In this document: positions 16,222 through 42,558 of the stretch, piece after piece
Layout: each line of letters begins with the position of its first letter
Position numbering within the stretch: position 1 is the first letter of the stretch
Assembly: GCA_963804995.1 (NCBI GenBank)
Contig: CAWDSK010000006.1
Span: 928,001 to 992,000, forward strand
Length of the DNA: 64,000 bases
From: an uncultured Acidobacteriota bacterium
GTDB lineage: Bacteria; Acidobacteriota; Terriglobia; UBA7540
Direction: 5' to 3'
Position numbers and translations under genes: made by a program
The notes under the pieces: generated by a model
What the model saw: the letters and a program-made list of their open reading frames with translations, nothing else
Databases searched by the model: none
What the model was told of the DNA's origin: nothing

Positions 16222-17031
16222 GTGCTAAATGGAAAGAGAATCTTCGTCGTGATGCCAGCCTATAACGCCGCCCGGACGTTGCGCCAAACCTGTGCCGAAC
16301 TACCTCGGGAGATTGTGGACGAAGTGCTGTTGGTTGACGACCACAGTTCTGACTCAACCGTGGAGTTGGCGCGCGAGCTAGGCCTGACCACCTTCCTGCA
16401 TCACCGCAATCTTGGCTACGGCCGCAACCAGAAAACCTGTTACCGTGAAGCCCTGCGACGGGGCGCCGACCTGGTGGTGATGCTCCACCCCGATTACCAG
16501 TATTCTCCCAAGCTCGTCACGGCCATGGCGAGCCTGATTGCCTATGGTGAGTACGATGCCGTGCTGGGTTCGCGGATTCTGGGCCGTGGAGCGTTGAGCG
16601 GCGGCATGCCTCTCTATAAGTACATTTCCAACCGCTTTTTGACCCTCTTCGAAAACCTCCTGCTCAACTACAAACTCTCTGAATACCACACCGGCTATCG
16701 GGCTTTTTCGAGCGAAGTCCTTAGGGCCTTGCCCCTGGAAGAAAATTCCGATGATTTTGTTTTTGACAACCAGATGTTGGCGCAGGTCATATACCTGCGC
16801 TATCGCATCGGAGAGGTGTCTTGCCCCACTAAATATTTCCCCGAGGCGTCTTCGATCAATTTCTCCCGGAGCGTCAAGTATGGGTTGGGGGTGATGGTGA
16901 CTTCCCTGGAGTTTCGGTTGCAGAGAATGGGCCTGGGGCGATTCCGGTTTCTCGATCCGAACGGTCGAAGATTGGTGGAGGACTATTACCTGGAGATAAA
17001 GGATTCCCACCCCCAGGAAAGTCACACCTAA
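16222..17031 (+). CDS. GT2 glycosyltransferase, DPM1-like (probable polyprenyl-phosphate sugar synthase)
   Basis: [43 protein letters not shown]. Confidence 0.9.
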
Positions 17032-17280
17032 CACCGTTCCAACTTTTTGGGACACATCTGCGTAAGCCGATAGCGGGACGATGCGGTGCGAGGCATTAGC
17101 GTATTGCATTGCGACAATGAGTTGGAACGGCCCTAGCATTCGCAGTTCCGCATGAAATTCAGGGTTGATCTTGCTTTGGTGCTCGCGCCTCCCTTCCGAG
17201 GGCGGCTTGGCTAATCGGCGGCCGAGGCTCGCGGGTCGCCTGGTCAGGATCGTGGTGTTGACCGTGGGCGCGGAAGGGCG

Positions 17281-18765
17281 GTGCAGCCACGGGGATCCCT
17301 GGGAGAAAAATTAAACTTGCCTGAACTCAACGCCGCAAAGCGTGTGGTCATCATTGGCGCCGGCCCCGCGGGTCTAACGGCCGCACTGGAACTCTCGAAA
17401 CATGGCGTTCCGGTGGTGGTACTCGAATCCGACACGATGGTCGGCGGCCTGGCACGCACGGTTGATTATAAGGGCTACTTGTTCGACATCGGCGGGCACC
17501 GTTTCTTCACCAAATGGGAGGAGGTCAGCCGGATTTGGCGAGAGATCCTCGGCGAAAAGTTCCTGCTGCGTCCGCGGCTTTCGCGCATTTACTACCGCAA
17601 GAAATTCTTCTCCTATCCTTTGGACGCGAAAAACGCTCTCCTGGGGCTGGGGCTGATTGAAAGCCTCCGCATCATGGCGAGCTACGTTTACTCGCAGATT
17701 CATCCCTTCCCCAAGGAAGAAAACTTCGAGCAGTGGGTCTCGAATCGCTTCGGCCGGCGTCTCTACGAAATTTTCTTCAAAACCTACACGGAAAAAGTCT
17801 GGGGGGTGCCCTGCACGTCCCTGCGCGCCGAGTGGGCCGCACAGCGTATCCGGGGCTTGTCTTTAAGGACCATCGTTCTCAACGCGCTGTTCCCGCAGAA
17901 ACACCCCAAAGTGAAAACCCTGATCGATCGTTTCCATTACCCCGAGCGCGGCCCCGGTCAAATGTGGGAGACGCTGACCCAACGGCTGATGGCAGCGGGC
18001 CACCGCGTCCTGAGGGAGCGGCGGGTGGTTCGTATCTGCCACAGCCATGGCGTCGTCACACGCGTGATAACTTGCGGCACGAACGGCGAAGAGAGCTATG
18101 AGGGAACGCACTTCATCAGCTCGATGCCCATCCGGGATTTGATTAACGCGCTCGACCCGCCCCCGCCGGAAGCAATCTCCCAGGCAGCGCGCAATCTTCG
18201 TTATCGTGACTTCCTGATCGTCGGCTTGATTATCAACCGCAAGGAGGTCGTTCCGGACAATTGGATTTATATCCACGAGCCAAACGTCAGGGTGGGACGC
18301 ATTCAGAATTTCAAGAACTGGTCGCTCGCCATGGTTCCTGATCCTGACAAGACTTGCCTGGGCATGGAATACTTCGTGTTTGAGAACGACGAACTCTGGT
18401 CTAACTCCGATGAGGTCTTGATCAACCTGGCCCGGCGTGAGATTGTGCAGCTTGGGATCGTGAAAGAAGAAGAAATCGCTGACGGCACGGTGGTCCGGAT
18501 GCCCAAGGCCTACCCCATGTACGGTCCGGGATGGGCGGAACAGGTAGAACAAATCCGCGAGTACCTTCAGAGCAATCTGTCTAATTTGCAACTGGTCGGC
18601 CGTAACGGCATGCACAAGTACAACAATCAGGACCATTCGATGATGACGGCGCTGTGCGCTGCCCGGAACATTTTGGGGGCCAGCCACGATCTCTGGGCCA
18701 TCAATACCGAACCTGATTACCAGGAGGAAGGTGCCATCAAGCCTGCCGAGAAAGGAAGACGATGA
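17281..18765 (+). CDS. FAD-dependent oxidoreductase, UDP-galactopyranose mutase/protoporphyrinogen oxidase-like family
   Basis: GAGPAGL, GGLART, DIGGHRFF, YTEKVWG, PKAYP, GRNGMHKYNNQDHS. Confidence 0.8.
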   Translation: MQPRGSLGEKLNLPELNAAKRVVIIGAGPAGLTAALELSKHGVPVVVLESDTMVGGLARTVDYKGYLFDIGGHRFFTKWEEVSRIWREILGEKFLLRPRLSRIYYRKKFFSYPLDAKNALLGLGLIESLRIMASYVYSQIHPFPKEENFEQWVSNRFGRRLYEIFFKTYTEKVWGVPCTSLRAEWAAQRIRGLSLRTIVLNALFPQKHPKVKTLIDRFHYPERGPGQMWETLTQRLMAAGHRVLRERRVVRICHSHGVVTRVITCGTNGEESYEGTHFISSMPIRDLINALDPPPPEAISQAARNLRYRDFLIVGLIINRKEVVPDNWIYIHEPNVRVGRIQNFKNWSLAMVPDPDKTCLGMEYFVFENDELWSNSDEVLINLARREIVQLGIVKEEEIADGTVVRMPKAYPMYGPGWAEQVEQIREYLQSNLSNLQLVGRNGMHKYNNQDHSMMTALCAARNILGASHDLWAINTEPDYQEEGAIKPAEKGRR

Positions 18766-20264
18766 AGGCCCCGGCGAGCGGGTTGGTGTCGCCCCCCGTT
18801 TGCGCCGAAACACGCCATCCCAAGGTGAGGATCCTGTTTGCCATCCTGGTGCTGGCGATGGCTGGTTACTTCGCCGCAAAGCACATTGCCTCCTGGCCCC
18901 TCAGGCTCCGGTACCCAGGAGAATTGAATGTGACAGAAGGCCGGCAAATCAAAGACATGATCGATCTGCGCCAGGGCTTGCCGGTTTACGCGCCGGCCAC
19001 GCCGGAAAGATACAACTCCGTAGAGTACGGGCCGCTCTTCTACCTGCTGGGCTCCCGTCTGGTTGACCCGTCACGGCCGAGTTTTCTGCCGCTCCGGCTG
19101 CTCTCCATGTTCGCGACGCTGGCCCTTGCGGCGGGCTGCGCTTGGCTCGCCTACCACCTGGCTCGAAGCTACCTGGCGGCGGGCTTGGCTGCGCTGTTGC
19201 TGCTGGCCTATGCGTTGGTTACAGACTGGGGCGTTGCGGTCCATCCGGACACGGTGGCTTTGCTCTTCTGGTTCGTCGGTTTCTTGATCGCCCACCGCTT
19301 CCGTGAAAGCCCCAGAATTCTTTTCGCTGTCCCCCTTATGACCCTGGCCCTTTTTTATAAGGGTCAATATGTAACTTCTGCCCTCGCAGTCCTGCTCTTT
19401 CTCGTCCTGGAAAAACGTTTGCGGCTGGCCGCTCGTTTCGCCACACTCCTGGGCTTGGCAACCGTGAGTTTCTTCCTGGCCTTTCAATTTGTGTTCTTCC
19501 GACATCAGGCTTTCTATCTTCACTTCCTCTCGTATAACCTACTCCCGTACAGCCCAAAGAGGGGCCTGGACGCAGTTATTGTGGTGGGTGTCACCCTGAT
19601 TATTCCCATCCTCGCGGGACTAACATTCCTACGGGCTTACCCGGATAAGCTGCTGGCCTGTTACTTGGGCTGGGCAGTGATCTTGGTGCCTCTGGCGCTT
19701 GCCAAGCCAGGGAGCGGGCTGAACTACTGTCTCGACTTGCTTCTGGTACTCTGCCCTCTCTTCGCGGCGCTGCTGGCAAAGAGAATCAGTAAAATGTCCA
19801 GTGCTCTACTTTGGCTATTTCTGCTGGGAGTCGCGCTTTGGCTCGGCCAACTTCCGAAGGGCCCAACCAATCCTTCTCCCATGGACTTCGCTAGCGACCG
19901 AGCGGTGGAAACATTCCTCCGCGAAAATTTCCCCGCCCACTCGGCCGGCCTGGGCGTCTTTACGGGTGACCTCTTACGCGCCGGGCTGGACACGCCGATC
20001 CAGAATATTTACCAATACAGTTGGCTCATCTGCAAGGGCACTTTACCGCCGCAGTATCTGGTGACCCAGGTCCAGGGCCGTCGCTTTCGCGTCATTCTCC
20101 TGAACAGCGATTTCCTGAACGAGGAGGACGCGCATCAGCACGATTATCTGTGTCTGCCTGAACCCCTCCACCAAGCGATTGTCCAGAACTACAAGCCTGT
20201 TGCGAGCTTTGCCTTCGACTTGGCGGGCAAGAAGCATTATTACGTGTGGGTGCCACGCAATTAA
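18762..20264 (+). CDS. Polytopic membrane protein, probable GT-C (ArnT/PMT-like) glycosyltransferase
   Basis: N-terminal TM, loop with EG and YGPLFY, about 11 TM segments, C-terminal soluble domain; ATGA overlap with the upstream gene. Confidence 0.65.
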   Translation: MKAPASGLVSPPVCAETRHPKVRILFAILVLAMAGYFAAKHIASWPLRLRYPGELNVTEGRQIKDMIDLRQGLPVYAPATPERYNSVEYGPLFYLLGSRLVDPSRPSFLPLRLLSMFATLALAAGCAWLAYHLARSYLAAGLAALLLLAYALVTDWGVAVHPDTVALLFWFVGFLIAHRFRESPRILFAVPLMTLALFYKGQYVTSALAVLLFLVLEKRLRLAARFATLLGLATVSFFLAFQFVFFRHQAFYLHFLSYNLLPYSPKRGLDAVIVVGVTLIIPILAGLTFLRAYPDKLLACYLGWAVILVPLALAKPGSGLNYCLDLLLVLCPLFAALLAKRISKMSSALLWLFLLGVALWLGQLPKGPTNPSPMDFASDRAVETFLRENFPAHSAGLGVFTGDLLRAGLDTPIQNIYQYSWLICKGTLPPQYLVTQVQGRRFRVILLNSDFLNEEDAHQHDYLCLPEPLHQAIVQNYKPVASFAFDLAGKKHYYVWVPRN

Positions 20265-20436: not shown

Positions 20437-22026
20437 ATGCCTACGAGATTCTTGGCTTCTTGGTGTCAAATGAGAGGGCGGTCCCAACTTCTGGTGGCTG
20501 TGGGGTTGGCTTCTCTGCTGTACCTCGCGGGACTGGTGCATTTCTCGAACGTCCGGGTCATCGATGACGACGAGGGTTTCTATACCACAGCCGCCCGCTT
20601 GGTTTGGGAAGGGAAAACCCCCTATAGGGATTTCTTCTTTCATCAGGCGCCGTTGATTCCCTACTCGTATAGTTGGGTTTGGATGCTCCATCCTCAGTCC
20701 CTCATTGCCATGCGTCACTTGTCCGCGGTCCTGGGCGGTATGGCGGTGGCATTATGGGGCGTGTCCCTTCTATTCGCCAAGCGGCTCCCGACGAGAATCG
20801 CGCTTGCGACTTTTGCCACTGTCGTTCTGAACCCTTATTGGGTAGCGTGGAATTCTGTGGTGAAGACCTTCGCCCTGGCCAACCTCCTCATGTCCATCAC
20901 CCTGGTTTGCCTATACGCTGCCTTGCAGTCAGATCGACGCAGGTGGTACCTCCTAGGCGGGTTGGCGCTGGGTGCGTGCGCGTCAGCGCGCGCGCTTTAC
21001 GGCCCGGTCGTTCCACTGGTGGTGGCGTGGTTGGCATTTAGAGAGTGGCGGACATCGCGCTCATCTTACCCGAAGACCCTAGCGTTCGCCGTCGGAGCCG
21101 CCTGTGGGTTGCTGCCCCTCATGATCACCTTCACATGCGCTCCGCAAGCATTCATCTTCAGCAACATCCGTTACTATCAATGGATCGCGGGGTACCACTT
21201 GGAGAATGGCAGGGCGGTGGTTGGTTACCCCAGCTTTGGCGTTATCCTCTTGACCTACTTCGGCGACATCGTGATTCGCCTCGTGATCCTCCATCCATAC
21301 TTTGCCGCGCAATCGGCTCTGGCAGTTGTCGGGGGCCTGAGTTTCATCAGATTGCGCAAGACTCAAGGGGAGCCCTACACTCGCCAAGACCATCTCTACG
21401 CCGAGTTGGTGTTGGTCATGCTCATAACTTACAGCGCCGCGGCATTGATTAACTTTCCCACTTGGGATCAATACTTTGACGGCCCCCTGGTTCCCCTGCT
21501 GCTACCCTTTGTTGCTGAGGGCTTGCGTGTCAGCTTGGGATTGAAAAAGAAGCAGGTACTGGCGCTGGCTATGCTGGCTTCGGTCCTTGTCCTGGCGGAG
21601 GTCAGGCGCGACGCTAGAGTGTACTTGAAAGAAGGGGAATGGAGCTTGTCGTCATACCGACGGGTAACGGAAGCCATCGAGGCCAACAGCCGTCCTGGCG
21701 ATCTAGTACTTTCGTTCACACCGGGATACGTTTTTGAATCGGGCAGGCGTTACTCCCTGGGGTTGACCAACGACGTGGTGTACCGCATTATGAGTCGGAT
21801 AAACCCCGAGGAAAAATCCCGGTATCACGTGGTTTCAAAAGAGCAGATCCTACAGTCCATCGCTGCCCGGGCACCCAAAGTAATCGTAACGGGGCGCCGA
21901 AGGTGTATGGCCGAGTACTACGCCAATCTTTCGCCGGAAGACGTGCAAGCCCTTCACGCCGCTGTGAACGATAACTATTCGCAGGTCAGCGTGATTGATG
22001 CAGTTGAAGTGTACCGGCGCCGCTGA
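20437..22026 (+). CDS. ArnT/PMT-family (GT-C) glycosyltransferase
   Basis: DDDEGFY...PYRDFFFHQAP loop after TM1; many TM segments. Confidence 0.78.
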   Translation: MPTRFLASWCQMRGRSQLLVAVGLASLLYLAGLVHFSNVRVIDDDEGFYTTAARLVWEGKTPYRDFFFHQAPLIPYSYSWVWMLHPQSLIAMRHLSAVLGGMAVALWGVSLLFAKRLPTRIALATFATVVLNPYWVAWNSVVKTFALANLLMSITLVCLYAALQSDRRRWYLLGGLALGACASARALYGPVVPLVVAWLAFREWRTSRSSYPKTLAFAVGAACGLLPLMITFTCAPQAFIFSNIRYYQWIAGYHLENGRAVVGYPSFGVILLTYFGDIVIRLVILHPYFAAQSALAVVGGLSFIRLRKTQGEPYTRQDHLYAELVLVMLITYSAAALINFPTWDQYFDGPLVPLLLPFVAEGLRVSLGLKKKQVLALAMLASVLVLAEVRRDARVYLKEGEWSLSSYRRVTEAIEANSRPGDLVLSFTPGYVFESGRRYSLGLTNDVVYRIMSRINPEEKSRYHVVSKEQILQSIAARAPKVIVTGRRRCMAEYYANLSPEDVQALHAAVNDNYSQVSVIDAVEVYRRR

Positions 22027-22042
22027 CGACGTGGTGAGTTGA

Positions 22043-23767
22043 TTATCTCGCTGCCTCTTCGGAGTAGGGCACCAACTTCACCGGATCTTTGTCAGGCTCC
22101 ACCAGCCAAACGCGCCGGTCCTTGTAGTAATCAATCAGCTCTTGATTGCGGGCGGCGCCCATATCCTGTGCCCAAACCACCTTGGCGTGGTCGATATCAG
22201 CCCGGTTGTGAACCCACTCCGGCAAAGTCACGCGCAGCGCCTGGGTATGCGGTGCGTATCGCACGATGACCAACTGCCCTCCAGGGTACGCCTCTAACTG
22301 GGCCAGGATGCGGGCGCGGTCTGTAGGGTGGTTCGTCCAATTGTACCAAGTGAGTGGCCAGTCCGGGGTAAGCGGCAGGTGCAGGGGACCCGCAGCCGCG
22401 CGGAGCGCCAAAAGGAAGGCGCAACCCAGCGGCAGGACCCGGATCAAGAACTGTCCGGAGGGCCGGCCTTTTGAATGCCACTGGTATAGACGCCGCATGG
22501 CCGCGAGCAGTAAGGCGAGAAGGATGCACGTTAGAGGAGCCACGTAGTGGGGATAGAACCCCACCGCGCCAGCCAGGCCTAAGAATGAAACACAAGCAGC
22601 CACGAAAAGAAAACGCGTTGCTGGGGCGATGGCCCTCCATGAGAAACCCATGGGCAAAGTTCCTATCACCAGGACGAAGGGTAGGGTCAGCAAGGGGCCA
22701 AGAAAAAACATCCAAATATGGATGAGTTTCGCGCCAATGAGAGCGATGACGCCTATTGCCGATCGATTCTTCGTATAGAACTCAAGCTCGTTGTATTTAT
22801 AGAAGTCGTGCATCACCTGGTGGTGGTAAGCAGGCTCAGGCCGCGGAGGTAGCAGGATAAAAAAAGGCGCCACCGCGTAAGTTGCCCGGTCCACTTGGTA
22901 AGGCATGCGGAAGGGACTGCCCGTGACCCGCCAGAAGTAATAGCACGTGAACAATGCCCCCAAGCTCAGCACCAACCCCAAGGGCGCCAAGACTTGCCCC
23001 GCCACCAATCGCAGGGGGGGATGCGGCCTCCGCAGCAACCACGCGACCAGCGCGACCGCCACGGGCAAGCAGAAGATCAACCCCTCATAGGGACGGCTGT
23101 TGGCCAGAACCACCGCGCCCAAGCCCATCAACAAGGCGTCGCCCACGCGTTGTGACCTATTGATGCGCGGCAGCGCCCCCAGCACCAGTGCCCCGCCCAT
23201 CGCCGCCACGGCCCCGCCCCAATAGCTATTCGCCCAGTAACTGAACACCCCGAAATGCATCACTGCCAGGAGGCCCCCCAGCAGTGCCCAAGGGGGAGAA
23301 AACCATCCTTGCAACATCCAGCAGAGAGCCGCGCACAACAAGGCCACGCTCAGCCAGACTCCCACAAACGGGTGGCCCGTCACGACCTGTCCGAACGCCA
23401 TGACCATGCCCTGCCCCGGAGGGTACATGGAGGCATAAGTGGGTTGTTGGATTTCATGGAAAGTTTCGAAGTGAATCCACAAGGGGTGGGGGGAATTCGT
23501 CAGGCGGCCATGCGCAAAAGTGTCAGCGGCCAAGAGATGGCTGAACTCATCGTTGACGTAAGGTTGCGGTTCCGGAAGGATCGGCAAGACGGCCGCACGC
23601 GCGGCAAGCGCCACCACCGCTACGGTGAATACGGAGAGCACTCTTCGGTGGGCCAGCGCCACGAAGCGGCGCTCAACCGGAGCAAGCCACGAGGAACCCA
23701 GCCGGGGACACGTGAAGGCCATGCCCACCAAAAGCAGCGCCACGCCGAGTTCAATCCACATGAGCAT
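22043..23767 (-). CDS. Polytopic membrane protein, probable GT-C glycosyltransferase
   Basis: NDEFSHLLAADTF, SMYPPGQG, NSRPYEG; many TM segments plus C-terminal soluble domain. Confidence 0.65.
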   Translation of the reverse strand: MLMWIELGVALLLVGMAFTCPRLGSSWLAPVERRFVALAHRRVLSVFTVAVVALAARAAVLPILPEPQPYVNDEFSHLLAADTFAHGRLTNSPHPLWIHFETFHEIQQPTYASMYPPGQGMVMAFGQVVTGHPFVGVWLSVALLCAALCWMLQGWFSPPWALLGGLLAVMHFGVFSYWANSYWGGAVAAMGGALVLGALPRINRSQRVGDALLMGLGAVVLANSRPYEGLIFCLPVAVALVAWLLRRPHPPLRLVAGQVLAPLGLVLSLGALFTCYYFWRVTGSPFRMPYQVDRATYAVAPFFILLPPRPEPAYHHQVMHDFYKYNELEFYTKNRSAIGVIALIGAKLIHIWMFFLGPLLTLPFVLVIGTLPMGFSWRAIAPATRFLFVAACVSFLGLAGAVGFYPHYVAPLTCILLALLLAAMRRLYQWHSKGRPSGQFLIRVLPLGCAFLLALRAAAGPLHLPLTPDWPLTWYNWTNHPTDRARILAQLEAYPGGQLVIVRYAPHTQALRVTLPEWVHNRADIDHAKVVWAQDMGAARNQELIDYYKDRRVWLVEPDKDPVKLVPYSEEAAR

Positions 23768-25370
23768 CAGTGAAACCTGCCGGGCCCCGCGCCAGACCCG
23801 CTTTCCGCACGAACAGTATACTTAACCCGTCGTCGTAGGCCTTCTGCCATTCGGGTTGAGCACCGAGCAGCCCGGCCAATGCCGTGTTGCGCTTCACCAG
23901 GCAGGACTGGACGTTGTACCTCTTCAGCAGAAGTAGGGCCCGTGGGCTGGGCAAGATGATGCGCAGGTACTCAGCCAAGACTCCGGAATGCTCATAAATA
24001 TCGAGCCGGCCATCGATGAACACCTTGTGCGCCGGCCCCAGCGACTCGATCAAGTAGCCACCCCAATCAGAGTCGTTAAACATGGGCACTGGCACAGTGT
24101 GGGTACGTATGTACTGGACGGCTCCCTGCGGCAGTCGGTGCGGGAGCGCATTTTGCAACTCACGGGTGCGGGGCATGAAAGCCGCGATGCCGGCAGCTAT
24201 CCCTAGCATGAGGGCGGCGTTCAGAAGATACCGGTCGCTCCCCCCCCGACCCGCCGGGACCCAGCGCGCCAGAACTGTGGCGAGCAGCGGAGCGCATACT
24301 GGAACCAAAAGCACCAGGAGCCGGGCGTGGGCGGTGGTGGCATAGACAGCCAGAAGCAACAAGATGATATCTTCAACGCGCTGAACAGGCTTAAAGAGAA
24401 TCTGGGCAATCAATATGCCGAGCAGCAGAAGCAGCAACATGATTCCCAACCCTTGGGACCAATCCAGAGGCCGCCATTCCCGAATGACCGCGAAGTTAAG
24501 GGGCTGGGAGAGGGCCAACCGGAAGAGGTAGGACACCAGGCGGGTTCCGTACGGCGTAATCGTGAGCGCCAGTATGGACAGAAGGGAACAGACTTCAAGA
24601 TGCCGCCTTTGGCCGTCGGTCCAACGCACGGCCGCGATACCTGCCCATCTCCCCTTCATCAAGCCACACACCAAGTAAACTACGAGCGCCAGCAGCCCCA
24701 GGACAAAGGAACCATGCGTGTTCACCCAGAGCGCAAACACCACCGGAAGCGCCCAAATTGCTCGGGGATAGCCTTGGCGAAATCGTTCCAGGCATATCAG
24801 TGTAATCAGCAAATAGACGTAGCCGATTTGCTGCGGACGTAGTATGGAAAACAGCATCACCCCGGGCAACAGCACCCCAGCGGCTAGAAAGGCAGCCCGC
24901 GGATTCCCGCAACGCAGGTAGGCGTAAACGTAAATGAGCAGTATGATGCCGCCTTGCAGTACCAGGAAGAGAGCTGCCAAGGCACTCAGGCCGCCCGCGC
25001 GGGCCACCGCCGCCAGGATGACCTCTCCCAGCCATTCATAAGCAATCCATTCTGTACCCGCTGCGGTGTATGAGTACGTGTCGGATGTGGGCCAAGTGTG
25101 CGTGGCCAGGATTTGCTTGCCCACCGTGATATGCCACCACAGGTCCCCTTCCAGGAAAAACTGTGCGGGGCTGGCACCCTGCGCCGAGCGCACTTGGTCG
25201 ATATTGCCCCGGATAACCACGAAGGTGGCGGCGACCAGCAACGCCGCGAGGAACACGGGGAAGGAGAAGCATTTCCGCCACGTTGCCGCGGCCTCCGGAC
25301 CCGGGCCTTCAGACACCTTGCACACCCCCTGCGGGTTATTCCCTACCACCAACTCACCTCGTTCAGGCAT
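23751..25370 (-). CDS. Probable GT-C membrane protein, DxWWH family, paralogue 1 (start uncertain)
   Basis: EGDLWWH, YSYTA, AYEWL, LRPQ, WVNTHG, TPYG, NDSDWGGYL, FIDGR. Confidence 0.7.
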   Translation of the reverse strand: MPERGELVVGNNPQGVCKVSEGPGPEAAATWRKCFSFPVFLAALLVAATFVVIRGNIDQVRSAQGASPAQFFLEGDLWWHITVGKQILATHTWPTSDTYSYTAAGTEWIAYEWLGEVILAAVARAGGLSALAALFLVLQGGIILLIYVYAYLRCGNPRAAFLAAGVLLPGVMLFSILRPQQIGYVYLLITLICLERFRQGYPRAIWALPVVFALWVNTHGSFVLGLLALVVYLVCGLMKGRWAGIAAVRWTDGQRRHLEVCSLLSILALTITPYGTRLVSYLFRLALSQPLNFAVIREWRPLDWSQGLGIMLLLLLLGILIAQILFKPVQRVEDIILLLLAVYATTAHARLLVLLVPVCAPLLATVLARWVPAGRGGSDRYLLNAALMLGIAAGIAAFMPRTRELQNALPHRLPQGAVQYIRTHTVPVPMFNDSDWGGYLIESLGPAHKVFIDGRLDIYEHSGVLAEYLRIILPSPRALLLLKRYNVQSCLVKRNTALAGLLGAQPEWQKAYDDGLSILFVRKAGLARGPAGFTDAHVD

Positions 25371-25440
25371 TTCCAAATCTATCCATGGCCGATGTCCGGG
25401 CTGGGGGGCGGTCGATGCCGCTTGCCGTCCCCTCGCTCCC

Positions 25441-30737: not shown

Positions 30738-31034
30738 ACCGTGGCCCTCATTTTGATGAACGTCCACTCGTGGGTTAGCCTGTGGACTTGAGGTTGTTGT
30801 GCGGATCTTGTCCTTCGCCAAACGTCACGCGTGGGGCTACCGCATGGGACCGGTTCCTCTCCCTGTTTCGTGCCAAATATGACAGGCAGCTCGCGACGGC
30901 TCAGTTCTTATTTGTCTGCTTAACTCCCATGCTCACGTGGGGCCGGCATAGAAACTCGAGGACTGATTCCCACTCGTCAAATAGGATGCCGTGGCCGACC
31001 TCGGGGCTGTACTGGATCTCAGCGCCTGCGACAC

Positions 31035-32513: not shown

Positions 32514-33031
32514 TATGCGGGCCTCCCGGCGGCTGGGTAGGTCGTACTCGGGGGCTGGTTTCTCTACCTTCGACCTGGATGTTAACTCTCGGAGAGCCGG
32601 CTGTAAAGGCGACCCTCAATTTGCTGCCTTTGCTTGAGCACGCCACCAGCCAAAACGGCACCGTTCAGCGGAGTCGTCCAGCTGACACTTAACTCCAGAG
32701 CACCTGTGGCGCAGCTCCGGCAGTCGATGGTTGGAGTAAACTGGAAGCCAGTCCGGGCAGCAAGTGCAGGGTTGTCCTGACACTTGGGGAATACGGGGCG
32801 GCGGCCCGTGTCGCTTCCCAACGCGCAGGAGGACGCGCTTCTTCATCAAATGAAGGGATTGCACACTCCCCACCCTCCCTCCTGAATGGACTGAGAATTG
32901 CTCAACCTGCAATAGCAACGTGAGCCGGGAGAATCGCCATGGTCCGTGCTCATTCCCGAATCAAAACAGAAGACCGAGGCCGACGCTGCCACCTTACGCT
33001 AAGGCGTCCATCCGGGTGGAGATAAATTGCC

Positions 33032-33898: not shown

Positions 33899-34187
33899 GA
33901 ACTCACGCCTGGGTCAATACGAAGCATCCTTCCCTGCTATCGATCGCCTTTTGCGTTCCTCTGCGCTTTTCGTTGTTTAGCATTAATAAACACATGAACG
34001 TACGCTGTATTTAGAGCCGTGGAGTAGTGCTGAAATACGCACACCTCCGCGCTACCGGACTTGATGCGAAAGACCTCCGAGGTCAACGATGGGGGCTGCG
34101 CATGGATTGGGTAGGGTGAATCTGAGGAAGAGCCGCCGACCTCAACCCCGGAGGTCTGCGCTACGATTGGCAGGCCGGCGGGTCAAA

Positions 34188-36293
34188 TTACTGCTGCTTG
34201 TCTTCGGGTTTCTTCTCTTCCTTCTTTGGCGGAGGTGGCTTTTGCGCCGGCGGCGGAGTTTGGTGTTGCGGCTGCGCCTGCGGTCGAACCGGCGGCGGAG
34301 CGCGTTCTTCTCTTACTGCCGGAGGAGCCTGGCGTACCGGAGGCTGAACCTGCTCACGGACCGGTGGCGCCGGGCGTACCGGGGGTTGAACCTGCTCACG
34401 GACTGGAGGCTCCGGGCGTACCGGAGGCTGAACCTGCTCACGGACCGGTGGCGCCGGGCGTACCGGGGGTTGAACCTGCTCACGGACCGGTGGTGCCGGG
34501 CGTACTGGGGGTTGAACCTGCTCACGGACTGGAGGCGCCGGGCGTACCGGGGGTTGAACCTGCTCACGGACCGGAGGCGCCGGGCGTCCCGGGGGTTGAA
34601 CCTGCTCACGGATCGGAGGAATATTCTGCGGCCGGCCGGCCGGGACGGGTTGGGTATGAAGGTTCTGGTTAGGCAGCTTTTCCGGACCAGTTTGGGGCTC
34701 GAACCGGGCGCTGGGCAAAGGTGGGCGCGGGACCGGGGCGCACGGTCGGCGTGACCGGATGAACCTGTTGCGCGTTGATCGGCTGGACCTGGAAGCGTCC
34801 TGGCGCCGGGTTATGGCCGACGGACTGGGAACGCAAGGTCTGTATTTGCGCCGGCGCTACCGGGGTCCCGGGATGCTCCTGCAACATCTGTTGCTTGGCG
34901 GCGAACGGAACCGCACGCGGAGGGGGAGCGAGTTTGGCAACTGCGGGACGATTGGCAAGAGCCGCCGGAGGCGCAACCGCGGCACGGCCACTGCTACTCG
35001 CAAGCACGCTCTCCCGTTGCGGCGCTACTCTGGGCGCGGCTCCGATCACTTCCGCCTGGCGCATCTGGTTGGCGTCGACGCGAACCCCGGCGCGCTGGAC
35101 AGGCTGAGCCGAGGCGAAAGAATTCTGAGGCATCGCCACGATAGCATTACGATTCACATAGTTGATGTTGGTGACGTTGATGTTGGTCACATTGATGTTT
35201 GTAATCCGCGTATTGGTGACGTTCACCCGGCGGACGTAATCCTCTGACACATGATACGAGGGGTAGTATGCTTCGCGGGGGCCGAGTGGGAACCAGCCGA
35301 CGAGACCGCCGCCCCCACCGCCTCTCGACACACCTGCGCTGAATCCTCCCCCGCCGACGAAAGCCACCAGCGCCGGAGCATAATAGACGCGCGCTGAAAC
35401 CGCGCCGGGGCACCAGCTCCAACTGTTATTGACATACGCCCAGCGTCCATAGTGAAACGGCGCGAAGCCCCAGGGTTCATTGTCCACCCAGGTCCAGCCC
35501 CAGGGTTCGACCCAAGCCCATTGCCCATCGTGATAGGGGGTCCAGCCCGCCGCCACGCGCGGAGTCCATACAGGTCCGTAGTCCGCCGTGTTGTGCCAAT
35601 CGCCATGGGCATTCAGATCTTCATAGCCGACCATGTCGGGTGAGACGTAGCGGGACGGGGGACGTTTCCCAGGTGGTCCCGCGAAGAGACGAAAGAATCG
35701 AAATCGTCCGGCTGGTTTGCAGCCTGAACGTCAGGCGGGTTGCCGGAGTTGTCGAAGTATGCTGTCTGGCCGGAATGAACGGGAAAGCTCTGGTTGTTGG
35801 CGGTTACTTCAATGTCGCCCGCACGCACAGTAATCATCGTGGCGTTGCGAGAGGTATCGGTGTCGACGCGGTATTCGCCTGTGCGCAGGAGAGTGATGGC
35901 GCCGTTGGGAGTGTCGACCTCCCAGGATTCCCCATCAAAGAGGTGACGTACGTGCAGGCTCAGACTGCCGGCGTTTATGCTGGTCTGAACGACGTTATCG
36001 CTCAGGTTCACGAACTGGAAATTGGTGCCAGAGTCCAGGCGGATGGAATTCTGCCCGATCCGCAGCACGGCACGCGCGCCGTTATCGGTATAGAGATTGT
36101 CGCCGGTGGTCATCGGGTAATTCAGCGATGCGTCGGCCCATCCGTCCACGCTGGCGGGCTCGAACGATACGGGACCGTTGATATACGCGATGCGGGCTAC
36201 GCGCGAGGGCGGATCCGCATCCTGCGCTGCCGCGATGCCGGAAACAGCGAGGAGTGCGGCTAGGACTGATACACACAAGAGCAAATTTTTCAT
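34188..36293 (-). CDS. FecR/DUF6600 domain exported protein with Pro-rich repeat tail; split by two frameshifts (~35660 and ~34695)
   Basis: ORF 35613-36293 (DPPSRVAR, FecR-like), ORF 34669-35634 (YEDL..G.W, GWTWV..EPWGFAPFHYGRW) and ORF 34188-34718 (Pro-rich) are collinear parts of one typical protein. Confidence 0.8.
34328..34618 (-). repeat. 42-nt coding tandem repeat x7 (PVREQVQPPVRPAP)
   Basis: CCTGCTCACGGA recurs every 42 nt from 34349 to 34601. Confidence 0.92.
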
Positions 36294-36865
36294 TTCAGGA
36301 CCTTTCCGGGTCGGCCGGCCAATAAATGCAGCGAAATCGCCAGAATGGAGTAAGTGGTCACCCGATCAGCATTTAAGCGGGACAAAATGCATCCTAATAC
36401 CCTCGGGCGGAGACTGTCTGTTCGATATTGCTCACGTGAGGAGAACTAAGCGACCTTGGATGAGTGACGAGAAACGGGTGGGATGACACTAACATATGTT
36501 GCGCGGCCTGGGCTTCTTCGCATTCATCTGCCACGGTTTTCAAAGAAGTGCAACTCCCTGACTCCCCGGAAGCCCCTTCGAAGAAGTTGGTGATGGCGTA
36601 GCGCTCGCTTGGATTGATTGCGGGTCGTAGTGTAGACCACCACACCTCAAGTCCAGGATGGTCGGGTACTCAAAAACAAACCCAGTGCGGTGCGGCTCCT
36701 CATCTTGCTCTGGTGGTCACATGGACGTTCTAGTCGCCGAACCGTAGATGTGGCGCCCACGCTCGCCTGCGGATTCCTGACATACCCGGAAGCTGCCGGA
36801 CAGGGGAAGTGCCGCATGGGTCGCCGGGAATAATCGAACTTCTGAAACCGCGGCCTGGCACCCAG

Positions 36866-36987
36866 CAGGTTGATGAAAAACGAAGTAGCGGCGGGTTTAC
36901 CCCGCCATCCCAGCCCGCGATCGCTTGGCATAAAATGGCGGGGTAAACCCGCCGCTACGCCGCACCGGAAGGGTTTTTCAGCAGCCC
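36866..36987. mobile_element. MITE-like element carrying a REP family A doublet
   Basis: Ends CAGGTTGATGAAAAA and TTTTTCAGCAGCC; homologous to 58007-58129. Confidence 0.6.
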
Positions 36988-37299
36988 CATGCCCCTATCC
37001 CCCAATCCCGAATCCTTCGTTTCCCCGCCCCCGCCGTGACACACTTCAAGAGCAGTGACCAGTGACTAGTGGCGAGTGGCGAGAGGAAACCCAAACCCAA
37101 GGCGGGAAGGAAATCAGTACCCAAATCCTAGCGGGAGACGCCCCACGCTGACAACTCGCAGCCGGCAGCTCACAATTTGTCCCCAGCCCCCCCTATTCCC
37201 TCGTTCCCCCATTCCCACCGTGAACACTCCCCCGCTTCGGTTATCGGTGGGATCGACGCCAAGGATGAGGCAAATTGAGTGGCCGGTAACAAGAAGCTT

Positions 37300-37370
37300 G
37301 CCCCCTCACCCGTCGCGCTCCGGCTGGTAAAAGCGCCGGCAGCGCGCCACCCTCTCCCCTCGGAGAGGGC
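37300..37370. repeat. Palindromic repeat CCCCCTCACCC...CCCTCTCCCC..GGAGAGGG; related inverted copy at 44450-44526
   Basis: Clear similarity to the reverse complement of ~44467-44526. Confidence 0.6.
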
Positions 37371-37562
37371 TATGAATTCTTGCTTGGGCTGATGGAGCGA
37401 TCACCCGACCACCGGATCACCCGAACTCCCGATTACCTACCTCCGCCGTGACACACTTCCCCGTATCGGTTATCGGCAGGTTGGTACCCAAACGTGAGCC
37501 AGAATTCGGCTCGAAGTTCGGCTCGAAGTTTGACAATCACCAATTCGTTCCATCGCAAAATC

Positions 37563-37665
37563 CATCAATGAACCGATGATCCAATGAATCAATGAATCAA
37601 AGATCCGATCGCCCAATGATTCAATGAATCAATGATTCAATGAACCAATGGCCCCATCGCCCGAT
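37563..37665. repeat. Degenerate octamer simple repeat (CAATGAAT-like)
   Basis: caatgaac cgatgatc caatgaat caatgaat ... caatgatt caatgaat caatgatt caatgaac. Confidence 0.75.
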
Positions 37666-37675
37666 CGCCAGCCCC

Positions 37676-39184
37676 TCACTTCTCCGACCTCCGCTCGTAC
37701 AGCACGCACATCTTATCGCTATAAACTTTCTTCCATTCCGGCGAAGCTTCGAGGAAGGTCGCGAGCCCTTCCCCGGGGGGGATGAGGCAGGATCGCAAGT
37801 GATACTTTTGGAGCAGCCAGGGAGTATTCGGGTGGACATGCATCATCTGAAGATAGTCCGTGAAGACGCCGGCGTATTCATAGATGTCGATCCGGCAGTC
37901 CATGAATACCCGCTGCTCCGGGCCCAGCGCATAAAGCAGGTAACCACCCCAGGTGAGGTCGTTCAGCATCGGCCGGGGGGGTGGGTGTCTGCGCAGAAAG
38001 TCGACGGCCCCCTGCGGATTATGGTCAGCTATGATGCGCTCGAGTTTTTCCTGCGCGGGGAAACCTTGGATGATTCCCAACGCAAGGCAGGCGATGATCA
38101 GAGCATTCAGGGCGGGAAGATCTTTGCGGGGCTCGTAGTTGGGCACCCAACCGTCCAGCAGGCTCGCCAGGAGCGGCGCAAAAACAATTGCGAAGAGGGG
38201 AAGGGCCCGGGCATGGAAGGCGGTCATGGCCACTGCCAAACAAAAGAGCGTCAATTCCTCGATGCGGACGGGCGGCTGGAAAATCGCCACCGCCGCGATG
38301 AAGAGCAGCAGGAAGGCCAGAAAGAGTTGGCCATGCCAGACGTTCAGCGGGATCGACTGCCAACTCAACATGGTCGAGATCATCTCCGGCTGCAGGAAGA
38401 AGACTTGCCCGGGATAGGTGAGCAGGCGCGGGCCGTAGGGTGTGACACAGCAAGCCCCGAGCGACACTAGCGTCACCGCCGCCATTTGAATGCGTTCGTC
38501 GACCGCCCAGCGCTCCGCTCGCAGGCATCCCACGCGCAGGTCCACCAGCCCGCCCAGCCAGTAAATCCCCACGGCAATCAAACCGAATACAAAGGTGCCG
38601 TGCGTATTGACCCAAAAGAGAAACACCAACGGAAGCAACCAAAGCGCCGCGCGACGGCCCTGGCGGAAAAGTTCCAGCAAGATCAGCGTGATGACCAGAA
38701 ATACGTAACCGAAAAGTTGGGGATGCAGAGTGAACCAGACTCCCTCGAGCGGCAGAATCAGCACCGTGGCCACAAAGGCCGCCTTGGAATTCCGGCAACG
38801 GAGATAGGCGTAATAATAAATTAACAGGGTCATGCAACCGGCCAGGCCGGCCAGAAGCCCCATCCAGCCCCGCAGCCCCCCGGCATGCCCCACCCGCGCC
38901 AGGACCACGTCCGCCAGCCATTCGTACGCCATCCATTCCGTGCCCGGGGCCGTGAAGGAATAGGTATCGAGAGTCGGCCAGGTGTGCGTGCGGAGGATGC
39001 GCTGACCTACCACGTCGTGGAACCAGGCGTCGGGATCTACCTGGAACATCAGCGACACCAGGAAAGCTCCGAGAACCAACAGGGCGCCTAAAAGAATCGG
39101 ATAGGAAAACACTTTCCTCAGGAGCGCCCAGGATTGAGCGCGCTCGCCTGCCACCGGATTTTCACTTCTTTCGTGACTACTCAT
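37676..39184 (-). CDS. Probable GT-C membrane protein, DxWWH family, paralogue 2
   Basis: DPDAWFH, YSFTA, AYEWL, WVNTHG, TPYG, NDLTWGGYL, FMDCRIDIYE. Confidence 0.72.
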   Translation of the reverse strand: MSSHERSENPVAGERAQSWALLRKVFSYPILLGALLVLGAFLVSLMFQVDPDAWFHDVVGQRILRTHTWPTLDTYSFTAPGTEWMAYEWLADVVLARVGHAGGLRGWMGLLAGLAGCMTLLIYYYAYLRCRNSKAAFVATVLILPLEGVWFTLHPQLFGYVFLVITLILLELFRQGRRAALWLLPLVFLFWVNTHGTFVFGLIAVGIYWLGGLVDLRVGCLRAERWAVDERIQMAAVTLVSLGACCVTPYGPRLLTYPGQVFFLQPEMISTMLSWQSIPLNVWHGQLFLAFLLLFIAAVAIFQPPVRIEELTLFCLAVAMTAFHARALPLFAIVFAPLLASLLDGWVPNYEPRKDLPALNALIIACLALGIIQGFPAQEKLERIIADHNPQGAVDFLRRHPPPRPMLNDLTWGGYLLYALGPEQRVFMDCRIDIYEYAGVFTDYLQMMHVHPNTPWLLQKYHLRSCLIPPGEGLATFLEASPEWKKVYSDKMCVLYERRSEK

Positions 39185-39476: not shown

Positions 39477-41003
39477 TTACGGTTCCTGGCGCACGAGCAA
39501 AACGCTCAGATCATCCTGATAAACTTGGCGCCATTCAGGGTTCCCATCAAGCAGGTTCGCAAGAGATCCGTTACGCTCAATCAGGCAGGAGCGCACGCCG
39601 TATTTTTTGAGAACCGCCAGCGCATCAGGTTCCGCTTGAATGATCCTGACGTAATCCGCGAGCACGCCGGAAGGCTCATAGGCGTCAGACCGCCCGTCGA
39701 TGAAAACCTTATGCTGCCCTTGGAACGCCCAGATCAAATATCCTCCCCAGAAATTGTCGTTGAACATGGGCTCGGGGACAGAGTGTGTGCGCAGGTAGTT
39801 TACCGCACGGCTCGGCTGATTGCGGTCAATCAGGCGCTGCAACTTGACTGAGGATGGGAACCACACCACACCGCCCACTACGAATGCCAGAATCAGGATT
39901 GCGTTGAGCGCCGGCCGCTCCGCTTCGGGTTGGTGAGCAGGAGTCCACTCCGCCAGCAATTCAGCCAGCACCGGCGCCAGCGCGATGGCGAAGAAAACCG
40001 CAAATCGTTGATGGATGCAGGCCAGGACCGCGGCGAAAATCACCAAGACCACCGCTTCCGCGCGTTCGGCGCGGCGCCGAAAGAACCATCCGATCACCAA
40101 GACCGATAACAGGATCAAGAACCACACGCCGTAGAAATCATGGAATCCGAGCGGCTGCCAATCTTCGAAATACTTCAAGTTTACGGGTTGCGAAGCGATG
40201 CCCAGCTCGTAGCGGATTAGGTGCGGTCCGTAGGGATTCACTGTTAACGCGACCACGCACAAGAGAAATACCCAAGCGAGGTGCCACCGCTCGCGAGGGA
40301 GCCACGCCTTGCCCTCCAGCTTGCTTACGCGGAAACCTTTAAGTCCTGCCACCCAATAAATCGCCATGGCCGCAAGGCCCAGCGTGAACGTGCCGTGAGT
40401 GTTCACCCAAAGTACGAAAACCGGAGCGAGAACCCACAGGCTTTTCTGCAACCCTCGGCGGTAACGCTCAAGCAAGATCAGAGTGATGAGCAGAGCGGTA
40501 TATCCCAGAAGCTGGGGGCGCAAGGTGAAGCAAAAACCCAGCAGTGGCAACGCGGCCACGCAAGCTATAAAGGCGCTCTTCGCGTCGCCGCTCACGAGGC
40601 TCGCGTAATAGTAGAGAAGCAGCATAATGGCCGAGACGAGGAGCGCAAGCAGCGCCATCAGCGCCCTGGGGCCGCCGCAATCCGAGGCGAGCGCCATCAA
40701 CACCTCACCCAACCATTCATAGGCCAGCCATTCGCTGGTGGGGGTCGTGAACGAGTAAAAATTGGTGGTGGGCCACTGATGAGTTTCCAGGATGCGCTGG
40801 CCCGCGGCTATGTGCCAAAACGTGTCACCTTCCACGAAGGTGGCGTGCCAATGGCCCGCGGGGAGCTCCGCGGCTTGGCCCAGGCGCAGGTGCAAATTCA
40901 TAAACATGCCGGCCACCAGCAATGCTCCCAGGAAAACAGGGAAGGAGAAAACTTTGCGGGCCAACGCTCCGAGCGTGGCGTCAGTGGCTGGACCCACGCG
41001 CAC
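39477..41003 (-). CDS. Probable GT-C membrane protein, DxWWH family, paralogue 3
   Basis: EGDTFWH, AYEWL, LRPQ, WVNTHG, NDNFWGGYL, FIDGRSDAYE. Confidence 0.72.
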   Translation of the reverse strand: MRVGPATDATLGALARKVFSFPVFLGALLVAGMFMNLHLRLGQAAELPAGHWHATFVEGDTFWHIAAGQRILETHQWPTTNFYSFTTPTSEWLAYEWLGEVLMALASDCGGPRALMALLALLVSAIMLLLYYYASLVSGDAKSAFIACVAALPLLGFCFTLRPQLLGYTALLITLILLERYRRGLQKSLWVLAPVFVLWVNTHGTFTLGLAAMAIYWVAGLKGFRVSKLEGKAWLPRERWHLAWVFLLCVVALTVNPYGPHLIRYELGIASQPVNLKYFEDWQPLGFHDFYGVWFLILLSVLVIGWFFRRRAERAEAVVLVIFAAVLACIHQRFAVFFAIALAPVLAELLAEWTPAHQPEAERPALNAILILAFVVGGVVWFPSSVKLQRLIDRNQPSRAVNYLRTHSVPEPMFNDNFWGGYLIWAFQGQHKVFIDGRSDAYEPSGVLADYVRIIQAEPDALAVLKKYGVRSCLIERNGSLANLLDGNPEWRQVYQDDLSVLLVRQEP

Positions 41004-42558
41004 TCTCCCGATGACTGGAATCGACTTCTCTTGTGACGTTCTGAGGTTTGCCTGCGCTGGCTGGCTTCCTTACGAATAGAACACTCTGCTCGTCTGCATA
41101 GACTTTTTCCCAGGCGGGGGAAGAAGTCAGCAGAGTCTGGAGCGGCTCGCTTTGCTTGACAAGGCATGATTTAAGGTTATAAGCCTCTAATAGCAAGGGC
41201 GTGGGGCTCGCAAGCCTGCCGATGCTGAGGTAATCGCTCAAAACGCCTGTCCGCTCGTAGATATCCGCCCGACCATCTATAAACACCTTGTTCTGATCCG
41301 CCAGTTGCCAGATCAAATAGCCGCCAAACAGGTAGTCGTTGTACATGGGCTTGGGCACAGGATGCTGCCTTAAGTAGGCCACCGCTTTGACCGGCCATTT
41401 CTCTTCCACAACCTGTTCGAGGGCGGCGCGGGAGGGAAAGAACCATAGAGTGGCGGCGACGGCAAGCCCCATCAATCCGGCATTCAGAGCGTACTTGTCC
41501 TTGGCGGGCTCATAGGGATCAAACCAGCGCGAAATGATTACGGCGAACATGGGTGCGCTGAAGGGCACGAAAGCCAATACAAACCGTACGTGCAGGCAAG
41601 CCGCGGTGATCCCGGCAAGGAACAGCACGAACTCTTCCAGGCGCCAGCGCGGCCGGAGCGTTACTTGGGCCAGCAAGAACGCCAGGATGAGGGCTAAGAA
41701 GAGCTGGCCAAAAACCTTGTCAAACATCATGGGCGCCCATTCAATAATATTCTTCTGCATGATGGGCTGGGAAAGGGCCAGGTCCAAGGGGTAGAGCAAT
41801 AGCTCTGAACCGTAAGGGGTGATGACGAGCGCCACCAGGCTCAGCAGCGCCACCATTTCCAACTGCAGGCGCTCACGGACTGTCCAAAGCCGGGATTCGA
41901 GGCCACGAATCTCGACGAGCCCGCATACCCAGTACACCCCCAGCGCAAAAAGGCCTAAAACAAAAAGGCCGTGCGTGTTGACCCAAACCAGGAAAAGTGG
42001 CGGCAGCAGCCACAGCGCGCGGGTGTGCCCCTGGCGAAAACGCTCAAGGATGATCAGGGTCAATACCAAAAAGAAATAGGCAAGCATCTGCGGGCGCAAA
42101 CTACAGGAGGCATAAACCAGGGGAAGGAATAAAGTGCAGGTCGCAAAAGCCGCTTTGGAGTTCTGACAGCGAATGGTAATCAGCGCGAAGAGCGCACTCA
42201 GGATAGCGCCCGCCATGCCGATATCGAGTGCCAGGAGGCCGCGCAGCCCCCAACGCTGGGAGACCATCGCCAGCAGAACTTCGCCCAGCCATTGGTAAGC
42301 GATCCAGTGCGTGCCATAGGCGGTAAACGAATAGGGGTCGGTGGTGGGCCAGCGATGCGTGGAGAGTATGACGCTCCCCACTTTGATGTGCCACCAGACG
42401 TTGGGATCCACCCAGAACTGGCGCAGCGGCGCCTGCATCCCAGCCACCAGCAAGACTGCCAACATGGCAGGGAATGAAATCAGTTTCTTGATAATCGACT
42501 GCGGCGTAGAGTGCTCAAGGTGCGAGGGAGGTGCCATCGTCTCAGGGGTAGTCATCAA
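40981..42558 (-). CDS. Probable GT-C membrane protein, DxWWH family, paralogue 4
   Basis: DPNVWWH, AYQWL, LRPQ, WVNTHG, NDYLFGGYL, FIDGRADIYE. Confidence 0.72.
   Translation of the reverse strand: MMTTPETMAPPSHLEHSTPQSIIKKLISFPAMLAVLLVAGMQAPLRQFWVDPNVWWHIKVGSVILSTHRWPTTDPYSFTAYGTHWIAYQWLGEVLLAMVSQRWGLRGLLALDIGMAGAILSALFALITIRCQNSKAAFATCTLFLPLVYASCSLRPQMLAYFFLVLTLIILERFRQGHTRALWLLPPLFLVWVNTHGLFVLGLFALGVYWVCGLVEIRGLESRLWTVRERLQLEMVALLSLVALVITPYGSELLLYPLDLALSQPIMQKNIIEWAPMMFDKVFGQLFLALILAFLLAQVTLRPRWRLEEFVLFLAGITAACLHVRFVLAFVPFSAPMFAVIISRWFDPYEPAKDKYALNAGLMGLAVAATLWFFPSRAALEQVVEEKWPVKAVAYLRQHPVPKPMYNDYLFGGYLIWQLADQNKVFIDGRADIYERTGVLSDYLSIGRLASPTPLLLEAYNLKSCLVKQSEPLQTLLTSSPAWEKVYADEQSVLFVRKPASAGKPQNVTREVDSSHRESARGSSH

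Follow-up and report, generated by a model that had tools for sequence, protein, structure and literature searches.

A glycosyltransferase cassette of variable content next to the Tad pilin gene of an uncultured acidobacterium: a candidate system for O-glycosylation of Flp

What do nine polytopic membrane proteins and two putative sugar-donor enzymes do next to the gene of a small pilin? This question is raised by a stretch of 64,000 nucleotides from an uncultured, soil-type bacterium of the Acidobacteriota, whose homologues by their names point to Terriglobia (G000:C6:928001-992000, with G000 the source genome and C6 its contig; hereafter the window), in which a complete tad pilus operon with the prepilin gene flp is adjoined by genes for a GT2 glycosyltransferase, a flavoprotein and the nine membrane proteins, named M1 to M9 (Table 1). 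A sequence-only reading had taken these genes for an island of GT-C-type transferases and a candidate undescribed surface or pilin glycosylation system; all open reading frames (ORFs) were found where it had placed them, and flp, with its C-terminal end SASTSLTGTS, is indeed divergent from GT2. Our answer, to which we give slightly more credence than doubt, is that the genes form a glycosyltransferase cassette, conserved next to the Tad pilin gene though variable in content, which O-glycosylates Flp in the periplasm in a TfpW-like manner.

The family of most interest comprises M4, M7, M8 and M9 and is here named WWH; it carries the motif DxDxWWH...RP...WxNxHG...EW...GGY...FIDGR. Its linkage to the pilus genes was measured in ten Acidobacteriota genomes outside the genus, picked for having both WWH and cpaB, not for linkage. 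Within 15 kb of cpaB we found 14 of the 24 WWH genes, at least one per genome, compared with 1 of 179 matches to the control GT-C family PMT_2 in the same genomes. The linkage of WWH to tad/flp is conserved far above that of the control, so that the expected synteny is borne out. Among 80 mostly Bryobacterales loci a tad gene is present in 78 and flp lies within 500 bp of WWH in 74, usually in the order flp-WWH-cpaB-rcpA and typically as one operon. Five of 16 genomes of other families have both WWH and cpaB, and an even phylum-wide draw of 70 genomes at least 90% complete (G062 among them counts only as a miss) yielded WWH in 27, cpaB in 10 and both in 5; the Pfam family Flp_Fap was dropped as a linkage marker as too insensitive (4/70). 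Of the 31 WWH loci that are distant from cpaB, 6 have a gene with a type IVa pilin motif within about 17 kb; the control loci gave 0 of 11, and random windows of 17 kb in G000 gave 1.5%, the latter a rough figure from another class. Plasmid WWH genes mostly supply the GT-C of GT2-methyltransferase (MTase)-GtrA cassettes, and one alphaproteobacterial Phyllobacterium plasmid has the order flp-flp-GT2-MTase-GtrA-WWH. A search of phage genomes gave no WWH match.

Within the genus the set comprised 24 genomes, 17 with cpaB, and the flp flank was fetched for 14; in 13 of these 14 loci a GT-C-like gene is located on the flp side. In 10 of the 17 the distance from WWH to cpaB is no more than 25 kb; the misses are four fragmented assemblies, G017 with just distant TPR-fused forms, and G018 and G023 with WWH on another contig. 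The cassette content differs in every genome, with zero to three GT87, zero to three M3 and zero to four WWH genes, together with further PMT/YfhO-like families and methyltransferases. In the WWH tree (FastTree, 107 rows; 19 of the 79 loci L048-L126 kept, the duplicate L047 dropped, matches covering <330 profile positions excluded) every window paralogue has its orthologue in one contiguous array of G020 next to GT2-flp (support 0.98-1.0), and both window blocks have contiguous orthologues in G020 and G002. The two blocks, GT2 to M6 divergent from flp and M7-M9 apart, are thus one cassette with about 9 kb of other genes between. Support for the deep branches of this tree is poor, and the pilus link may have one or several independent origins.

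Other GT-C-like genes near tad loci were noted as well (L150:12143-13975, L151:5502-7313, L145:17523-19355): TMEM260-like in two genomes that lack WWH, and PF10131 directly beside flp in G055. Such different genes at other tad loci hint at replacement of one pilin transferase by another. On a Sulfuricystis plasmid (L045:5627-10965) a GT2-MTase-GtrA-WWH-WWH cassette adjoins conjugative tra genes.

What kind of protein is WWH? The profile matches 30,440 cluster representatives (50% identity clusters) at E≤0.001, and 84 members share no Pfam family. WWH is a large family missing from Pfam, and a recent CAZy family may possibly cover it. An AlphaFold2 (AF2) model of M8 from 121 sequences (predicted local distance difference test, pLDDT, 96) matched STT3 best (Z 19.2, root mean square deviation, rmsd, 4.2, 435 aligned), followed by DPY19 (18.1), AglB (16.2), Pmt4 (15.4), PglB (15.0), ArnT (14.2) and AftD (12.8). 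The best structural rows are protein-modifying enzymes, and the matches include the C-terminal periplasmic domain. WWH is accordingly modelled here as a predicted GT-C fold of a compact STT3/DPY19-like type, a shared fold being short of proof of function. By sequence, the profile found no real match in the PDB, PF02516 is absent from the 84 members and from G000, and the WWD motif is absent, with NDxxWGGY in WWH where PglB-like proteins have WWDxGY. An hhalign comparison of WWH with one PglB-like protein, and with M3, found nothing, so that this motif correspondence is by eye only; the label 'GT-CB' for WWH was dropped, GT66 being placed in GT-CA by Table 1 of PMC10920833. The loop Asp, Arg, NxH, Glu and DGR are near-invariant across 107 WWH sequences at 25% identity, in-operon ones included, as expected of an active site.

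Each of the nine membrane proteins has 7-10 hydrophobic segments by hydropathy, and Pfam detects no TPR domain in any of them. All-against-all BLASTP divides them into six families, of which only M4, M7, M8 and M9 are paralogous (41-45% identity), every other pair being at E>0.01; the three genes at 37676-42558, earlier called further paralogues, are paralogous to each other and to M4, and the other five are unrelated by sequence. M3, M4 and M6-M9 are without a Pfam match. The AF2 model of M3 (pLDDT 91) matched Pmt4 (Z 18.2, rmsd 4.2, 348 aligned), ALG12 (16.9), ArnT (16.8) and also STT3, and M3 is predicted to have a GT-C fold, as suggested for the set; this holds for both families that were folded. 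Of the nine proteins proposed as GT-C, eight are well supported, through the fold of M8 and M3, the homology of M4, M7 and M9 to M8, and Pfam for M1, M2 and M5. M6 is probably a GT-C too, on weak evidence: NF047440 scores 27.7 bits (cut-off 200), its Atlas clusters have PMT_2 in 36-38% of members, PMT_2 appears below cut-off in 2 of 18 homologues, and the family has a conserved YxxDDxY loop. M4 probably starts downstream of the listed TTG and has no deviation at conserved WWH columns, and the motif changes of M7 recur in its G020 orthologue.

The acidic loop motifs EG, DDDEG, NDE, EGD, HDF and VDN are all present as described. The Asp of the first external loop is invariant within the WWH, M3 and M6 families, and seven window proteins have an acidic residue there. 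VDN of M6 and DPN of M9 are degenerate forms of these otherwise invariant Asp motifs: the position of Asn67 in M6 is Asp in 117 of 117 aligned homologues (3 more are gapped), and that of Asn53 in M9 is Asp in 104 of 107 WWH tree rows, with M9 the lone Asn. Both Asn codons are AAC. Loss of an Asp of this kind disables GT-C catalysis. M6 and M9 are likely inactive, as judged from their loops, and in TfpW the DDX motif is reported as required (10.1101/2020.04.19.049825). A systematic G-to-A error was considered and rejected, since none of 89 private deviations was D-to-N (1100 invariant columns in seven neighbouring genes). Given apparent frameshifts elsewhere in the assembly (pilB, TonB receptor), a sequencing error at the two Asn codons is possible. 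With content varying from genome to genome and two members likely dead, the fixed nine-step assembly line first imagined finds no support.

Table 1. Features of the tad locus and the adjoining cassette, in window coordinates.
Feature	Position	Strand	Basis or remark
tad operon: tadC, tadB, tadA/cpaF, cpaE, rcpA secretin, cpaB/rcpC, tadV peptidase	7619..14943	-	Pfam T2SSF x2, T2SSE, CbiA/ParA, Secretin, RcpC, Peptidase_A24
flp prepilin, 57 aa	15404..15577	-	proposed acceptor, inferred
GT2, DPM1/GtrB-like	16222..17031	+	PF00535; predicted polyprenyl-phosphate sugar synthase
PRK07208-family flavoprotein	17281..18765	+	NF005548; predicted NDP-sugar pyranose-furanose mutase
M1, PMT_2-type GT-C, EG motif	18762..20264	+	PF13231 27.3 bits, cut-off 26.1
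M2, PMT_2-type GT-C, DDDEG motif	20437..22026	+	PF13231 30.2 bits, above cut-off
M3, Pfam-less GT-C, NDE motif, D73 invariant	22043..23767	-	AF2 model and fold search
M4, WWH-family GT-C, EGD motif	23751..25535	-	43-45% identity to M7-M9
M5, GT87-family GT-C	25441..26670	-	PF09594 E 2.7e-26
M6, probable GT-C, Pfam-less family, likely inactive	26674..28386	-	Asn67 replaces Asp
Unrelated genes and repeats splitting the cassette, outside the system	28387..37675		Pfam
M7, divergent WWH paralogue	37676..39184	-	three conserved columns changed
M8, WWH-family GT-C, modelled member	39477..41003	-	AF2 model and fold search
M9, WWH paralogue, clade kept by most genus members, likely inactive	40981..42558	-	Asn53 at invariant Asp

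Where would the sugars come from? As its description as DPM1-like implied, GT2 has DPM synthase as its sole PDB match; it has no transmembrane (TM) helix, and its DxD motif is replaced by HxD, a feature shared with all 7 orthologues checked. We regard it as a predicted polyprenyl-phosphate sugar synthase. An orthologue is present in 23 of the 24 genus genomes, which makes it near-core, and 12 of the 17 genomes with cpaB have it no more than 8 kb from that gene. In G015 and G007 just a GT2 fragment stands beside flp (L001:6823-7014, L037:3117-3431), and an intact orthologue, 83-84% identical to the window GT2, is on another contig. The flavoprotein matches NF005548 (PRK07208) with 697 bits (cut-off 389), compared with 36.5 bits for the bacterial Glf family TIGR00031, far under its cut-off of 303.75. 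In the PDB its 14 top rows are all UDP-galactopyranose mutases of the eukaryote type (UGM; E 5e-25 to 2e-21), the best being A. fumigatus UGM, with the aligned motifs GGH, Y.EKVW, W...RI, GR.G and NQDHS. The label 'mutase-like' was therefore fair, and the protein is predicted to be a pyranose-furanose mutase of nucleoside diphosphate (NDP) sugars. Among genus genomes it is found at the tad locus only in G013, there with close M1 and M2 orthologues; M1 orthologues also occur without it.

None of the GtrA, Wzx, Wzy and ABC families is found among the 42 window proteins scanned, so the window has no recognisable flippase, Wzy or exporter, as had been noticed; a single GT2-GtrA fusion occurs 600 kb away in G000. 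A GtrA match is present in 24 of 24 genus genomes, and inside the cassette only in G008 among the loci compared. PPR synthase, DprE1 and DprE2 are absent from the window (Pfam), and four UbiA-family matches are located elsewhere in G000. In total G000 has 38 GT2, 12 PMT_2 and 2 GT87 matches, and all 4 of its WWH genes are in the window.

Mature Flp has 43 aa, and residues 22-43 hold 10 Ser/Thr. The window Flp lacks an N-x-S/T sequon, which is found in 8 of 29 genus Flps and in 1 of 49 Bryobacterales-type Flps; the mean Ser/Thr number is 8.3 and 7.5 in the two groups. The Ser/Thr content offers no more than a hint of an acceptor role. For Caulobacter, the outer surface of the Tad filament is described as formed by the polar C-terminal patch of the pilin (PMC10710030), and the Flp pilin of Aggregatibacter is reported as glycosylated, the modification being attributed to RcpC (PMC12307814). 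Two further, nearly identical flp genes of G000 are located at a great distance from the tad operon (C5:445964-446137 and C5:55744-55917), with no GT-C gene found within the 20 kb fetched.

A second pilus cluster had been suggested as a further substrate. It lies near M7-M9 and consists of a frameshift-split pilB and three minor pilin genes: at 46399-48322 a PilB/GspE-type ATPase is split over two overlapping frames near 47,540, through a real frameshift or an assembly error, and is followed by pilV/W/X-like genes, with no pilC or major pilin gene in the window. The genes are there, but their closeness to the cassette was not found to be conserved: pilB follows the cassette in one genome, G023, and 4 of 24 genus genomes have a PilX homologue, in none of them on a cassette contig (the contigs being short). 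The cluster was rejected as a linked substrate.

How could such a cassette act? GT2 would load a monosaccharide from an NDP-sugar onto polyprenyl phosphate at the inner face of the membrane, the mutase, where present, would supply a furanose, and a GtrA-type or other flippase encoded elsewhere would move the lipid-sugar outward. While Flp resides in the membrane, a WWH enzyme would then place the first sugar on Ser/Thr of its C-terminal half, which faces the periplasm; the accessory GT-Cs (GT87, M1, M2, M3 and more WWH copies) may lengthen the glycan, add branches to it or act on other acceptors of the envelope. The pilus exposes only a short polar tail, and its coat would be altered whenever such genes are gained, lost, duplicated or inactivated by point changes, which could plausibly counter pilus-binding phage; phage-driven variation of a pilus coat has a described precedent (10.1101/150227).

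Among the closest known systems, compared by their features, is TfpW of Pseudomonas aeruginosa group IV (pilA-tfpW-tfpX), a GT-C encoded directly after pilA that is described as O-linking D-arabinofuranose (D-Araf) to Ser/Thr (10.1101/2020.04.19.049825). Both have a GT-C gene tied to a pilin gene, an acidic first-loop motif, a lipid-monophosphate sugar donor (predicted here), a proposed Ser/Thr O-linkage and a flippase that may act in trans. They differ in the acceptor, here the 43-residue Flp and not a type IVa PilA; in the donor, which here would come from GT2 and NDP-sugar (with the mutase) and in TfpW comes from phosphoribosyl pyrophosphate (PRPP), DprE1 and DprE2; and in the several GT-C families here compared with one there, the window WWH copies moreover being without TPR. 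The TfpW gene order, with the GT-C directly downstream of the pilin gene, is seen in 74 of the 80 Bryobacterales-type loci, whereas the window cassette is divergent from flp. With GtrABC and the pentofuranose systems (GT136) of Kelly et al. 2024 the locus shares a GT2-type lipid-sugar synthase with a periplasm-facing GT-C, and on plasmids WWH is part of full GT2-GtrA-GT-C cassettes; unlike these systems, the window locus has no GtrA and nine GT-Cs, and the known GtrABC acceptors are polysaccharides.

GT66 (STT3, AglB, PglB) and DPY19 of GT98 resemble WWH in TM and C-terminal domains (Z 15-19), one PglB-like protein also in the GY...IDG spacing as seen by eye, but WWH has about 500 aa, 9-12% identity, no PF02516 match and NDxxWGGY for WWDxGY, and Flp has no sequon. 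The eukaryote-type UGM of Aspergillus and Trypanosoma, which provide the best PDB matches and aligned motifs of the flavoprotein, are distant (E 5e-25), and the NCBI family PRK07208 is still called 'hypothetical'. Aggregatibacter Flp1 likewise is a Flp pilin reported as glycosylated (PMC12307814), but the passage concerned names no transferase and RcpC is now described as a periplasmic conduit. None of the titles and abstract openings in the literature searched names a Flp glycosyltransferase. In the wide sense the system can no longer be called undescribed, as TfpW and the three-component GtrABC systems are precedents; what the locus would add is their logic applied to a Tad pilus via an uncatalogued STT3/DPY19-like family. 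The analysis tested linkage against a control family, the fold of WWH and M3, the association with type IVa pilins and the two Asp-to-Asn alleles, and these alleles are a new finding.

Several points weigh against Flp as the acceptor. Shown are the gene content, a GT-C fold predicted for two of the families and a linkage that is conserved; from these we infer its glycosylation by the cassette, together with all of the chemistry. The nearest window WWH gene is 8 kb from flp and not co-transcribed with it. In the phylum-wide draw 22 of the 27 WWH-bearing genomes have no cpaB match and 5 of the 10 cpaB genomes have no WWH. The 80 Bryobacterales-type loci are kin, retrieved with in-operon proteins and not independent, and just 2 of them have a GT2 nearby. 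Outside the genus, its WWH clade has the closest relative on a Granulicella plasmid, where there is no pilus link, and flp is nearby in only 1 of 9 plasmid records, GtrA-WWH being without flp in five others; flp linkage across phyla was rejected on this count. All 7 genus genomes without a cpaB match keep GT2 (5 of the 7 are under 90% complete). The flavoprotein is found in just 5 of 24 genus genomes, so that furanose, earlier considered a possible general feature, was rejected as a core one. A Ser/Thr-rich tail is unspecific, the Flps of four loci without WWH having 2-7 such residues, and in the passage concerned the Caulobacter Tad pilus is described without glycan density (PMC10710030).

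Could the cassette decorate another surface molecule? It may be a GtrABC-like multi-enzyme system acting, outside the cytoplasm, on lipopolysaccharide (LPS), a glycolipid or an exopolysaccharide, the tad operon being a neighbour through a shared role in adhesion and co-regulation from the divergent promoter region. The plasmid cassettes agree with this, as WWH is found in GT2-MTase-GtrA cassettes without flp on several proteobacterial plasmids, and so do the action of GT87, ArnT- and ALG-like folds on lipid-linked glycans, the near-core GT2 kept regardless of cpaB, the resemblance of the variable content to serotype loci and the description of three-component systems with several GT-Cs (PMC11194591). 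The single WWH between flp and cpaB in 70-odd Bryobacterales-type operons would however be left unexplained, as would the recurrence of WWH beside type IVa pilins and its best match to protein-modifying enzymes, and for the cassette as a whole we hold this reading to be rather unlikely. The accessory GT-Cs may well have such a role, with WWH acting on the pilin.

A general periplasmic O-glycosylation of Ser/Thr-rich exported proteins, with Flp one client or none, would suit the many genomes that have WWH and no cpaB, often in multiple copies and with TPR fusions, as well as the near-core GT2 and the Ser/Thr-rich exported proteins of the window (sedolisin 26%, PilX-like 23%); since it does not need a fixed place next to the pilin gene, and PMT_2 is unlinked (1/179), we consider it distinctly unlikely. 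Alternatively, the in-operon WWH, though folded like a GT-C, would help to assemble the pilus or chaperone the pilin and transfer little or no sugar, and the other genes would have accumulated at an insertion hot spot. This is very improbable in view of the active-site-like conservation of the WWH loop residues, even with two window genes full length despite their lost key Asp and a flp flank that takes up unrelated genes and repeats.

The O-glycosylation of Flp by the cassette, as preferred here, can be widened to a more general statement: WWH enzymes would be compact STT3/DPY19-like O-glycosylators of Tad and type IVa pilins and, in this genus, would anchor a serotype-like cassette for strain-specific glycans on a pilin without a head, with glycoforms switched by shuffling of genes and by single Asp-to-Asn changes in the catalytic loop. 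This is a tentative idea, which we would sooner doubt than accept.

Regarding the setting of the locus, the GC content of the cassette (0.56-0.61) is flat compared with the contig (0.583), which means that there is no compositional island. The horizontal-island reading was rejected, and the genes at 28.4-37.7 kb (DAO, Ser/Thr kinase and FecR/DUF6600 by Pfam) are unrelated to the cassette. A promoter and terminator scan remained at chance level. In this intervening block, tandem copies of a 181-bp palindromic repeat lie at 28775-29171; this element, similar to a repetitive extragenic palindrome (REP) or miniature inverted-repeat transposable element (MITE), has 89 matches in G000, often in tandem, and also adjoins an orphan flp (C5:55.7 kb) and MurJ. 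The FecR/DUF6600 protein at 34669-36293 is present as two overlapping ORFs (35613-36293 and 34669-35634), possibly a single frameshifted gene. A perfect 24-bp inverted repeat is located at the edge of the inserted block (36885-36958), and an 8-bp microsatellite-like run directly after M7 (37549-37668). Farther away, a second TonB-dependent receptor (58479-62292) is split across two frames near 59,760, its tandem paralogue at 54248-57943 being intact. At the end of the tad operon lies a DUF192 gene (6987-7445); in most tad loci of the Bryobacterales type and of other acidobacteria a DUF192 gene likewise adjoins flp or tadC, so that it is likely an unrecognised Tad component.

If O-glycosylation of Flp by the cassette is true, a function would be assigned to a very large family without a Pfam entry, and this family would be a compact STT3/DPY19 relative, possibly able to use Ser/Thr as acceptor and monosaccharides from the donor, of value to glycoengineering and to the study of oligosaccharyltransferase evolution. 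It would also point to phage-driven variation of the pilus coat in abundant soil bacteria.

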